From sequence record MZ726792.1: a stretch of DNA of 64,000 nucleotides; one strand, written 5' to 3'. A program made the position numbers and the translations under genes. Under the pieces are notes generated by a model. That model ran no database searches. It saw only the letters and a list, made by a program, of their open reading frames with translations, and had not been told where the DNA came from. Shown here piece after piece: positions 3,232-4,948 of this stretch. Each line of letters starts with the position of its first letter. Position 1 is the first letter of the stretch. Source of the stretch: Escherichia phage vB_EcoM_ASO1B.

Positions 3232-3310
3232 GGGAGATTGACGGCAACTTGGTAGACCTATCTCGCTTAGAACGAGATGCTTGAGGGTTCGAATCCCTTG
3301 TCTCCTACCA
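3232..3310 (+). tRNA. tRNA-Leu (anticodon TAG), short variable arm
   Basis: Leu-like D loop AACTTGGTAGA, perfect anticodon stem TCTCG/CGAGA with loop CTTAGAA, T-loop TTCGAAT, A73, CCA; variable region only 5 nt. Confidence 0.6.
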
Positions 3311-3317
3311 AATTAAT

Positions 3318-3393
3318 GCAGGTGTAGCAAAATGGTTATGCGGCTGACTCTTAATCAGTAAGACGATGGGTTCAATTCCCTCCACCTGTACCA
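3318..3393 (+). tRNA. tRNA-Lys (anticodon CTT)
   Basis: Paralogous to the Lys-TTT gene; anticodon loop CTCTTAA, T-loop TTCAATT, CCA. Confidence 0.7.
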
Positions 3394-3399
3394 GACATT

Positions 3400-3475
3400 G
3401 GGGATGTAGTTTACATGGTTAAAACATAAGTTTTGCAAACTTAAGTACAGGGTTCAATTCCATGCTTCTCCACCA
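3400..3475 (+). tRNA. tRNA-Ala (anticodon TGC)
   Basis: D-stem GTTT/AAAC, perfect anticodon stem TAAGT/ACTTA with loop TTTGCAA, T-loop TTCAATT, CCA. Confidence 0.7.
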
Positions 3476-3481
3476 ATTAGT

Positions 3482-3556
3482 GCATCCATAGTTTAAACGG
3501 GAAAATTACAGTCTTCCAAACTGAGGTTGAGGGTTCGATTCCCTCTGGATGCTCCA
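3482..3556 (+). tRNA. tRNA-Gly (anticodon TCC)
   Basis: Perfect acceptor GCATCCA/TGGATGC, anticodon loop CTTCCAA, T-arm GAGGG-TTCGATT-CCCTC, CCA. Confidence 0.75.
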
Positions 3557-3562
3557 AATTAA

Positions 3563-3639
3563 TGCTCCTATCGTATAATTGGCTATTACGGTTGCCTTGT
3601 AAGCAACTTATCAGGGTTCGAATCCTTGTGGGAGCACCA
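3563..3639 (+). tRNA. tRNA-Thr (anticodon TGT)
   Basis: Anticodon stem GTTGC/GCAAC with loop CTTGTAA, T-loop TTCGAAT, CCA. Confidence 0.75.
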
Positions 3640-3640
3640 A

Positions 3641-3730
3641 TTCAGAGGTCAAGTGAAAGACCGCTGGTGTCAACTGAAGACCGTAACAAATTCCACGGAG
3701 TTGAGTTAGCGGCACAACTTCAGACCTCTT
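3641..3730 (+). other. structured spacer with nested inverted repeats and a U-box-like TGAAGACCGTAACAAA word
   Basis: AGAGGTC 3644-3650 pairs with GACCTCT 3723-3729; CTGAAG/CTTCAG inner repeat; GAAGACCGTA shared with U2 and U4. Confidence 0.35.
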
Positions 3731-3734
3731 TCAT

Positions 3735-3809
3735 GCTCGCTTAGTTTATATGGTAAAACATCACCCTTACAAGATGAAGAAAAAGGTTCAAGTCCTTTAG
3801 TGAGTACCA
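3735..3809 (+). tRNA. tRNA-Val (anticodon TAC)
   Basis: D-stem GTTT/AAAC, anticodon loop CTTACAA, T-arm AAAGG-TTCAAGT-CCTTT, CCA. Confidence 0.7.
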
Positions 3810-3810
3810 T

Positions 3811-3888
3811 GTTCCAGTATCCCAATTGGCAGAGGATGCAAGCTCAAACCTTGTATTAGTGACGGTTCGAATCCGTCTTGGAACACCA
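3811..3888 (+). tRNA. tRNA-Leu (anticodon CAA), short variable arm
   Basis: D loop AATTGGCAGAG, anticodon stem GCAAG/CTTGT with loop CTCAAAC, T-loop TTCGAAT, CCA. Confidence 0.55.
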
Positions 3889-3893
3889 ATTTT

Positions 3894-3969
3894 GCAGGAT
3901 TAGTTCAAATGGATAGAGCAACAGTCTACGAAGCTGTTAATAGGGGTTCGAATCCCTTATCCTGCGCCA
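3894..3969 (+). tRNA. tRNA-Arg (anticodon ACG)
   Basis: Perfect acceptor GCAGGAT/ATCCTGC, anticodon loop CTACGAA, T-loop TTCGAAT, CCA. Confidence 0.75.
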
Positions 3970-3986
3970 GATAAAAAGGTGATACT

Positions 3987-4229
3987 ATGCAAACATTAAC
4001 AGTAGTTGAACATGAAAACTGTGAGAATATTGAGTTTGTCAGGGTCATTGGTGTTGAACACCACATTTTCTTAAAAGTAGGGTACTTATGTGACCCCGCT
4101 AGAGTAGAAAGATTTATACGTGATTGTTTTGGTGGTAGACAGCTAAAGAGTGTTATTTTTGAGACAGTTTTACCAGAAGGTTTAGAAACGAATAATAACA
4201 TTTATCTCCTTACAAGGATTAGACGATGA
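3987..4229 (+). CDS. hypothetical protein (80 aa) embedded in tRNA cluster
   Basis: ORF in track; AAGGTG ribosome-binding site 5-6 nt upstream of ATG 3987. Confidence 0.5.
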   Translation: MQTLTVVEHENCENIEFVRVIGVEHHIFLKVGYLCDPARVERFIRDCFGGRQLKSVIFETVLPEGLETNNNIYLLTRIRR

Positions 4230-4783
4230 GATATTTAAAATATGCTTCATGGATTTTCCTAGCTTTGCTAGAACCATTAGCAGCAACCTTAGCAGTTATC
4301 TTAGCACCTTTCGTAGTTCCATTTTACAGTGAGAAGAAAGGCCACTTACCTTTCGGATTTAGATGGATGGAGACATATGACAACCCAATTGATGGTGACG
4401 AAGGTCATATCGAACGATGGGCTAAGATTAGAAAGATTGGTAAGCTGGGTGTCTACATGCAGAGAGTCGGATGGCTCTGGAGAAACAAAGCTTATAACTT
4501 CTCTTACCATGTATTAGGAAGAGATGTAAAAGATGTTACTAAGTGGAAAGGTAATATCAACGTAAGTTCTGACCCTGAAGATAATCAGACAGGTTATCTC
4601 CTAATGTGGAACAGTAATGCTTGGGGATTATTCGCTTTTATCCCATCAATTAAAGTCTTTGGTAAACAATTTTACTGGAGAATTTATATTGGGTGGAAGC
4701 TAAAAAGTGTTGTCCCAGAAGAAAGAGCATTCTCAAGGGAAAGAGTTATGTTGGCATTCTTTATTCATCCACTAAGAAAGTAA
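4226..4783 (+). CDS. hypothetical membrane protein (185 aa, N-terminal hydrophobic segment)
   Basis: ORF in track; start overlaps the stop of the upstream ORF (ATGA); hydrophobic N-terminus IFLALLEPLAATLAVILAPFVVPF. Confidence 0.55.
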   Translation: MRYLKYASWIFLALLEPLAATLAVILAPFVVPFYSEKKGHLPFGFRWMETYDNPIDGDEGHIERWAKIRKIGKLGVYMQRVGWLWRNKAYNFSYHVLGRDVKDVTKWKGNINVSSDPEDNQTGYLLMWNSNAWGLFAFIPSIKVFGKQFYWRIYIGWKLKSVVPEERAFSRERVMLAFFIHPLRK

Positions 4784-4791
4784 AGATTTAA

Positions 4792-4867
4792 AGGGGATTA
4801 GTTTACAAGGTTAAAACCTCGGTCTTTGAAATCGAAGAAGTTGGTTCAATTCCAACATCCCCCGCCA
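4792..4867 (+). tRNA. tRNA-Gln (anticodon TTG)
   Basis: D-stem GTTT/AAAC, anticodon loop CTTTGAA, perfect T-arm GTTGG-TTCAATT-CCAAC, CCA. Confidence 0.7.
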
Positions 4868-4869
4868 AT

Positions 4870-4948
4870 GCTCCATTACTCCAATTGGCAGAGAGGCCAG
4901 ACTTAAAATCTGTGTTATGTATCGGTTCGAATCCGATATGGAGTACCA
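4870..4948 (+). tRNA. tRNA-Leu (anticodon TAA), short variable arm
   Basis: D loop AATTGGCAGAG as in Leu-CAA, anticodon loop CTTAAAA, perfect T-arm ATCGG-TTCGAAT-CCGAT, CCA. Confidence 0.55.

Follow-up and report, generated by a model that had tools for sequence, protein, structure and literature searches.

Short-armed tRNA-Leu genes in the tRNA cluster of Escherichia phage vB_EcoM_ASO1B

We found three leucine tRNA genes that lack a long variable arm in Escherichia phage vB_EcoM_ASO1B, within a stretch of 64,000 nucleotides (nt) of sequence record MZ726792.1 that we refer to as the window. The phage is a Felix O1-like myovirus (Felixounavirus; 39% GC), and the three genes, with the anticodons UAG, CAA, and UAA, are part of its tRNA cluster. 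Judged by their sequence, they are probably functional type I leucine tRNAs, charged by the leucyl-tRNA synthetase (LeuRS) of the host and serving the codons UUA, UUG, and CUA. The genes had been proposed earlier from the letters of the window (the original prediction), and ARAGORN and Rfam call them with exactly the boundaries and anticodons given there (Table 1).

Structure of the three leucine tRNA genes

All three genes terminate in an encoded A73-CCA in the ARAGORN predictions, the A73 having been noticed already in the original prediction. They match the Rfam tRNA model RF00005 over its full length (model positions 1-71) with scores of 30.5 bits (UAG), 44.0 bits (CAA), and 47.5 bits (UAA); the gathering score of the model is 29 bits, which places all three in the tRNA class. 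The variable regions had been put at 5-7 nt and are indeed UGCUU in Leu(UAG), AUUAGU in Leu(CAA), and GUUAUGU in Leu(UAA) (5, 6, and 7 nt, respectively), none of which contains a hairpin. Since the genes measure only 75-76 nt before the CCA, no hidden long arm is possible, and none has the hairpin arm of >10 nt that characterizes a class II tRNA-Leu. The tRNA-Ser and tRNA-Tyr genes of the same cluster keep their long arms, as predicted, and these are visible in the ARAGORN drawings (Table 1).

The anticodon loops (CUUAGAA in Leu(UAG), CUCAAAC in Leu(CAA), and CUUAAAA in Leu(UAA)) are of 7 nt, with U33 and a leucine anticodon at positions 34-36. ARAGORN, Rfam, and a covariance model that we call R1 (trained solely on 51 type I Leu genes from chromosomes and used as a partial stand-in for isotype models) place the anticodon of all three genes in the same register, so that no reading in a different register emerged. 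Reading the sequences against the tRNA numbering, we observe U8, A14, A15, G18G19, U48, and A73 in all three genes, together with A20a. The D arms of Leu(CAA) (UCC-CAAUUGGCAGA-GGA) and Leu(UAA) (CUC-CAAUUGGCAGA-GAG) each consist of 3 base pairs (bp) and an 11-nt loop, and the Leu-like D-loop strings quoted in the original prediction (AACTTGGTAGA and AATTGGCAGAG) are present in the sequence. Both genes have the Leu-type D arm N13-A14-A15-Y-U-G18-G19-Y-A20a-R-A, which Leu(UAG) matches in part; the D arm of the latter (ACGGCAACUUGGUAGACCU, 19 nt) has a three-position stem with a C-C mismatch and a 13-nt loop. Leu(UAG) and Leu(UAA) begin with a G1-U72 pair, as does E. coli tRNA-Leu(UAA) (PMC6614811).

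The features of other identities are absent. The 3-70 pairs of the three genes are G-C, U-A, and U-A, none being the G3-U70 of tRNA-Ala, and in place of the long arm, G73, or GUA anticodon of tRNA-Ser and tRNA-Tyr the genes have A73 and leucine anticodons. A search pattern that requires a Leu D loop and an NAR anticodon, with the T loop a short distance further on, has two matches in the window, compared with 0.00 expected from shuffled sequences, so that chance is no explanation. Minimum-free-energy folding alone does not recover the full cloverleaf of the Leu genes.

R1 gives Leu(CAA) 73.2 bits (E = 1.1e-23), a lead of 22 bits over the highest-scoring non-Leu tRNA, and Leu(UAA) 70.6 bits (E = 8.5e-23). 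Every other tRNA of the window scores at most 51 bits, the best of them being tRNA-Glu (51.0 bits). The cloverleaf itself is strongly maintained among the relatives. In the 51 chromosomal sequences 98.6% of cells are paired, both partners have changed at all 20 of 20 pairs, and the covariation is 0.78, compared with 0.18 in shuffled alignments and at most 0.16 when the partners are slid. In 64 sequences from viral contigs (<50% GC), 98.4% are paired and the covariation is 1.02 versus 0.23 shuffled. A73, U48, and U8 are invariant in 51 of 51 chromosomal and 74 of 74 viral sequences, although these positions lie outside the search pattern. The three phage genes are intact tRNAs with leucine anticodons, the structure of which is under selection.

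Distribution and relatives

Felixounavirus, Mooglevirus, Suspvirus, and Kolesnikvirus share the three short Leu genes, which lie in the same slots. They measure 77, 78, and 79 nt in Mooglevirus Sf16, and 77 (CAA), 78 (AAG), and 77 nt (UAA) in the Kolesnikvirus Erwinia phage Pistou. A blastn search with Leu(CAA) against annotated phages returned phiSUSP1 and >250 further records (248 at ≥95% identity) and no matches outside Ounavirinae, blastn being too insensitive for tRNA families; relatives were for that reason sought with pattern scans and ARAGORN. The same kind of search against 5,426 E. coli genomes gave no match, i.e., no close host copy, a 78-nt query making this a weak test. Leu(CAA) and Leu(UAA) hardly vary among 25 IMG/VR contigs (Felix-, Moogle-, and Susp-like), and Leu(UAA) is identical in 20 of the 23 Ounavirinae contigs examined. 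GenBank records mostly label these genes tRNA-Leu, and some call them tRNA-OTHER or pseudo, which gives the finding some relevance for annotation.

The Leu(UAG) slot is more variable. Among 27 genes called there (window and Sf16 included), 19 are of the type found in the window (allele A), and eight are of a second type (allele B, GCACCUAUAGCCCAAYUGGWAGAGGC...), which is family-typical and occurs in wV8 and in Moogle-like phages. The anticodon stem of allele A exists in three variants (UCUCG/CGAGA, CCUCG/CGAGG, and CCAUC/GUUGG) that are fully compensatory, and the allele resembles the Leu(UAG) of a Seunavirus, which has a regular 3-bp D stem. Alleles A and B are unrelated to each other and occupy the same slot in close relatives (Felix-like contigs L244-L270 and L003), which suggests that single tRNA genes are replaced cassette-like within the cluster.

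A few genomes depart from this arrangement. Salmonella phage Si3 carries a chimera whose 5′ part (acceptor and D stem) is that of Leu(CAA) and whose remainder (body and 3′ end) is that of Leu(UAA), implying a recombination event between the two genes that caused a deletion; the pseudo and OTHER labels in the Si3 record are explained by this chimera. Salmonella phage BPS15S6 has an A73G substitution in Leu(CAA). In Pistou (locus L001, 5497-5574), the short-armed Leu gene beside tRNA-Val has the anticodon AAG, and type I Leu(AAG) is also found in several IMG/VR contigs. Leucine anticodons with A34 are uncommon in bacteria; this one would depend on inosine formation or on strict reading of CUU.

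Outside Ounavirinae, a degenerate version of the Leu pattern matches at least 120 loci in GTDB species genomes and at least 120 in IMG/VR, and ARAGORN calls almost all of the matches listed as tRNA-Leu of 73-79 nt. The GTDB matches listed are mostly from Actinomycetota (Mycobacterium, Nocardia, Gordonia, Rhodococcus, Corynebacterium, Arthrobacter, Bifidobacterium, and Amycolatopsis). Among the matches listed, the short Leu gene is the sole tRNA within 8 kb at 71 of 94 genome loci, mostly Actinomycetota, so these appear to be ordinary chromosomal genes rather than phage cargo. The Actinomycetota matches agree with a report that only three of the five tRNA-Leu of M. tuberculosis have a long variable loop (PMC11541572). 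Six bacterial contigs with a short-armed Leu gene (from Asanoa, Cylindrospermum, and Micromonospora, and from metagenome-assembled genomes of Acidobacteriota, Rhodocyclaceae, and Cellvibrionaceae) carry 17-26 tRNA genes in a stretch of 8 kb, and the regions concerned are probably prophages or tRNA arrays instead of core tRNA genes.

The viral matches listed have GC contents of 31-65%, most of them 35-45%, and the short Leu gene usually lies in a tRNA cluster with long-armed Ser and Tyr genes, sometimes beside a type II Leu gene. The Leu(UAA) of the T5-like phage EPS7 is a type I gene of 77 nt, and the Cronobacter Seunavirus EspYZU12 has short Leu genes of 78 and 77 nt; the Leu genes of Justusliebigvirus alia and of phage KKP_3262 are of type II. 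A further EPS7 gene, tRNA-Leu(UAG) (locus L271, 7988-8068; 81 nt), has a 9-nt variable region (UCUUCGGGU) that is intermediate between type I and type II and may be a snapshot of arm shortening. In a scan that accepts either arm length, 17 of the 120 loci listed include a type I gene and 103 have type II genes only. Among the loci listed with at least five tRNAs, the split is 12 with type I versus 48 with type II only, or 24 short versus 87 long Leu genes; the resulting ~22% of short genes is a rough figure for IMG/VR, obtained with one D-loop motif from the first 120 loci returned.

By sequence similarity, then, Leu(CAA) and Leu(UAA) can be assigned to a widespread type I lineage that is shared by many phages and by the chromosomes of Actinomycetota, and Leu(UAG) to a second, more divergent short-armed lineage. 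The original description of the genes as unusual type-I-like Leu tRNAs stands in all its elements, with the qualification that the form is shared with Ounavirinae, other phages, Actinomycetota, and Streptomyces coelicolor and is thus not unique to this genome. A further qualification concerns the division among the three genes: Leu(CAA) and Leu(UAA) are clear members of the family, and Leu(UAG) stands apart as the more irregular gene.

Previous descriptions of type I tRNA-Leu concern animal mitochondria and S. coelicolor. The latter, the single bacterial case studied, has been presented as rare and tied to a specialized LeuRS (PMC6614811); contrary to this, short-armed tRNA-Leu looks common in the sequence collections that we scanned. 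Our literature search, of incomplete coverage and with the older T5 tRNA papers outside it, returned no paper on type I tRNA-Leu in phages and no description of the breadth of type I tRNA-Leu in Actinomycetota and elsewhere.

The LeuRS of S. coelicolor charges its own type I tRNA-Leu(CAA) with a kcat/Km of 6.25 per s per µM, and this tRNA, whose variable loop is A44-C45-A46-G47-C48, requires at least five variable-loop nucleotides (PMC6614811). Like the phage genes, it has a leucine anticodon, a short variable loop (5 nt, compared with 5-7 nt in the phage), U8:A14, and A73, and is found alongside class II Ser and Tyr tRNAs. It differs in having C48 instead of U48, and hence no A15-U48 pair. 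Moreover, the other four of the five Leu isoacceptors of Streptomyces are of type II, whereas all three phage Leu tRNAs are of type I. The Streptomyces tRNA is charged by a LeuRS that has co-evolved with it and carries a special leucine-specific domain, whereas the phage has the host LeuRS only. The chromosomal type I genes of Actinomycetota (UAA, CAA, UAG, and others) share with the phage genes the D arm NCC-CAAUUGGCAGA-GGN, U48, and A73. However, they are GC-rich single chromosomal genes, mostly without an encoded CCA, their variable loop is of 5 nt rather than the 6-7 nt of phage Leu(CAA) and Leu(UAA), and the host phylum differs from that of the phage.

Animal mitochondrial tRNA-Leu(UUR/CUN) also have a short variable loop, A73, and A14, and a bacterial-type LeuRS charges them in the absence of a long arm (PMC9976931). 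They are floppy molecules with degenerate D and T loops, whereas the phage genes retain the canonical G18G19 and TΨC loop, and there is no sequence relationship between the two. Class II tRNA-Leu (E. coli, the T4-type phage KKP_3262, and Justusliebigvirus alia) have the anticodons, U48, and A73 of the phage genes and, like phage Leu(CAA) and Leu(UAA), a D arm of 3 bp with an 11-nt loop (GAAUUGGUAGA in class II, CAAUUGGCAGA in the phage; the two phage genes have the loop NAAUUGGYAGA, in a D arm of the same build as in the type II comparators L002, L026, L083, and L272). They are 85-87 nt long, with a variable-arm hairpin of 13-17 nt that the phage genes lack. Finally, engineered arm-less or minimal E. 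coli tRNA-Leu are aminoacylated by LeuRS if A73 and the D/T contacts are kept, as far as they are summarized in a review (PMC9976931). These constructs (Larkin 2002; Asahara 1998; Tocchini-Valentini 2000), as described there, are derived from type II tRNAs, whereas the phage genes are natural.

Probable leucylation and decoding, and alternative explanations

The identity set of E. coli LeuRS comprises A73, the A15-U48 Levitt pair, G18G19, and A20a; the anticodon is not used, the sequence and folding of the long arm are uncorrelated with leucylation, and an arm-less minimal tRNA-Leu is active (PMC9976931). Fan et al. (2019; NAR 47:6369) give the same set plus A14 (PMC6614811). The U8:A14 pair and the positioning of G18G19 and A20a within an 11-nt D loop are likewise reported recognition elements of the enzyme. 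U48 is found in the phage Leu genes and in every family member that we collected. From the retained identity elements, we infer that an enterobacterial host LeuRS would leucylate the three phage tRNAs. They would be transcribed with the 25-gene cluster and processed like its other tRNAs, and without a long arm they should escape seryl-tRNA synthetase (SerRS). That type I tRNA-Leu works with enterobacterial LeuRS is indicated indirectly, since three unrelated families of enterobacterial phages carry it.

The anticodons UAA, CAA, and UAG would read UUA, UUG, and CUA/CUG, respectively, and further CUN codons could be read if U34 is modified. In 53 open reading frames (ORFs) of the window (49 kb), the shares among Leu codons are 26.6% for UUA, 13.0% for UUG, 11.4% for CUA, and 15.7% for CUG, so that UUA, UUG, and CUA together amount to 51%. 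In E. coli, roughly 50% of Leu codons are CUG, 13% UUA, and 4% CUA. The phage uses UUA, UUG, and CUA far above the E. coli level, which fits the usual role of phage tRNAs in codon supply: During infection, the phage Leu tRNAs may add to the scarce host isoacceptors or take their place.

Several observations weigh against functional, host-charged leucine tRNAs. E. coli LeuRS did not charge the tRNA-Leu(CAA) of S. coelicolor and has been described as specific for type II only, and its leucine-specific domain favors tRNAs with a large variable region (PMC6614811). Leu(UAG) has an irregular D arm and an Rfam score barely above the threshold, and its 46.8 bits with R1 fall within the range of the other isotypes, in contrast to the family scores of Leu(CAA) and Leu(UAA). 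Leu(UAA), in which positions 36-38 are A36-A37-A38, contains a C27-U43 mismatch, and Leu(CAA), because it carries C38, may lack N6-isopentenyladenosine at position 37 (i6A37). Knock-out mapping of the related phage Bas63 finds its tRNA genes to be mostly non-essential in laboratory hosts (PMC11482910), a dispensability that is as would be expected for accessory genes. The experiment with E. coli LeuRS is the only direct test with a natural type I tRNA-Leu (PMC6614811), and its negative result may not transfer to the phage genes, because the substrate, a tRNA from a distant phylum, carries C48.

The negative charging result is also a point in favor of a rival explanation, namely, that the genes have no role in translation: As poor or null LeuRS substrates they would be uncharged decoys or sponges, partners of a Ro60-like protein, or drifting relics. 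In Bas63, the ORF directly upstream of the tRNA genes encodes gp130, which a preprint calls Ro60-like and reports to counter the Ppl defense; its authors speculate that gp130 binds tRNA-like RNAs and that some of the mostly dispensable "tRNA" genes are Y-RNA-like partners (PMC11482910). The window has an ORF with the domains DUF2828 and DUF7788 (3-827) directly upstream of its own cluster, likened to gp130 by its equivalent position, and some GenBank records label the Leu genes tRNA-OTHER or pseudo. However, the anticodon loop, U33, A73, encoded CCA, and Leu-specific tertiary elements are strictly kept, and invariance of A73 and U48 over 74 divergent viral sequences is sensible only if they are read by LeuRS and the ribosome. 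Moreover, the three anticodons are complementary and match the over-used Leu codons of the phage, the near-invariance of Leu(CAA) across >250 genomes is not drift, and the pseudo label of Si3 reflects its chimera and not the normal genes. A nontranslational role therefore seems quite doubtful to us, and Y-RNA-like partnership with the upstream ORF in particular we judge unlikely, the three genes being complete tRNAs with CCA ends. Another possibility is that the tRNAs are charged with leucine but that the loss of the arm is itself adaptive, hiding them from nucleases or toxins that recognize or cut the class II arm. The handle of the toxin MenT3 is the long variable loop of tRNA-Ser (PMC11541572), the eukaryotic SLFN11 acts on type II tRNAs, short-armed genes make up ~22% of the Leu genes in the sampled phage tRNA clusters, and at least two sequence lineages have the short arm. 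Against this, we found no bacterial defense in the literature that cuts the variable arm of tRNA-Leu, the Tyr tRNA (a known target) and the Ser tRNAs of the same phage keep their long arms, and type I Leu is an ordinary chromosomal gene in Actinomycetota, which makes a defense story unnecessary for its existence. We regard this form of counter-defense as unlikely. The same grade applies to its wider version, according to which arm-less Leu tRNAs would be a widespread phage strategy, charged by enterobacterial LeuRS, in contradiction to the published restriction of the E. coli enzyme to type II, and favored because they evade arm-recognizing nucleases or toxins or are otherwise insulated from host regulation specific for tRNA-Leu.

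Recoding, in which another synthetase charges the tRNAs and UUA, UUG, and CUA are partly read as another amino acid, is very improbable. LeuRS ignores the anticodon, so an altered body with a leucine anticodon could in principle be captured by another enzyme, and A73 is common to several other identities. Yet the genes have no G3-U70 (Ala) and no long arm or G73 (Ser), their anticodons are wrong for every anticodon-reading synthetase, and the D loop and Levitt pair are those of the Leu set; since the three codons make up half of the Leu codons, recoding would also change every phage protein. The chance that the genes are ordinary tRNAs of another type, mispredicted through a wrong register or a missed arm, we consider negligible. 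The low Rfam score of Leu(UAG) and the failure of energy folding to give a full cloverleaf could be taken that way, but three independent methods share the register, the length before the CCA is too short for a long arm, and the stems covary among the orthologs; on these grounds we ruled the artifact out.

Functional type I leucine tRNAs, our preferred reading, contradict a textbook generalization, though the published identity rules of E. coli already predict their function. If E. coli LeuRS accepts type I tRNA-Leu, the stated specificity of a textbook enzyme would have to be revised, and compact natural Leu tRNA scaffolds would become available for engineering; if it rejects them, three strictly conserved phage "tRNAs" would serve a non-decoding role. 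Were counter-defense to be true, the Leu genes of phages related to Felix O1, T5, and rV5 would be anti-defense elements like the tRNA-Tyr and tRNA-Lys of T5.

The tRNA cluster and its surroundings

All tRNA genes of the cluster (Table 1) are on the + strand, separated by spacers of 1-8 nt plus a few small ORFs. Mooglevirus Sf16 has them in the same order, and Kolesnikvirus Pistou in a similar one. Over positions 3100-5100, the window matches Escherichia phage vB_EcoM_ASO1A (MZ726791) at 100% identity, and ~300 records of Felixounavirus and related phages at 90-97%.

Table 1. Positions of the leucine tRNA genes, the tRNA cluster, and neighboring features in the window
Feature	Positions	Strand	Description	Source
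tRNA-Leu(UAG)	3232..3310	+	79 nt including encoded CCA; allele A of the Leu(UAG) slot	ARAGORN, Rfam
tRNA-Leu(CAA)	3811..3888	+	78 nt; typical type I tRNA-Leu	ARAGORN, Rfam, R1
tRNA-Leu(UAA)	4870..4948	+	79 nt; type I tRNA-Leu	ARAGORN, Rfam, R1
tRNA cluster	993..6144	+	25 tRNA genes including the three Leu genes	ARAGORN, Rfam, ORF list, Pfam
tRNA-Tyr(GUA)	1485..1572	+	88 nt; long variable arm; class II comparator	ARAGORN drawing
tRNA-Ser(UGA)	2888..2977	+	90 nt; long variable arm; class II comparator	ARAGORN drawing
tRNA-Ser(GCU)	5972..6064	+	93 nt; long variable arm; class II comparator	ARAGORN drawing; Rfam 46.2 bits
ORF, C-terminal part	3-827	+	DUF2828 (E = 4e-12) and DUF7788 (E = 7e-44); start beyond window edge	Pfam
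ORF, 80 aa	3987-4229	+	interleaved with tRNAs; no Pfam match	Pfam
ORF, DUF7338	4226-4783	+	membrane-like protein (E = 4e-62); relatives in T4-like Klebsiella/Escherichia phages	Pfam
ORF, DUF7217	5172-5969	+	DUF7217 protein (E = 5e-89)	Pfam

A phage LeuRS or helper protein was sought among the ORFs in and beside the cluster, which yielded domains of unknown function only (DUF2828/DUF7788, DUF7338, and DUF7217). The DUF2828/DUF7788 ORF stops ~165 nt upstream of the first tRNA.

Three tRNAs called by ARAGORN, tRNA-Met(CAU) (1245-1321), tRNA-Tyr, and tRNA-Ser(UGA), are absent from the list of Rfam matches above the gathering threshold for positions 800-6400, which shows that several of the phage tRNAs receive too low a score from general models. 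R1 aligns the three at 26, 24, and 15 bits, respectively.

Two further tRNA-like elements lie on the + strand. The first (2567-2645) scores 31.7 bits with Rfam and receives no ARAGORN call. Its acceptor stem and T arm are good and its anticodon loop is CUUCUAA (UCU, Arg); the place of the D arm is occupied by 4 nt only, and the variable region is of ~20 nt. In Mooglevirus Sf16, the corresponding slot is taken by a normal tRNA-Arg(TCT) with an HNH endonuclease gene after it, and the element may be a remodeled or decaying tRNA-Arg. Between it and tRNA-Ser(UGA), a weak match (2794-2868) scores 23 bits with the tRNA-Sec model (gathering score 47) and 14.7 bits with R1; it is probably a degenerate tRNA remnant.

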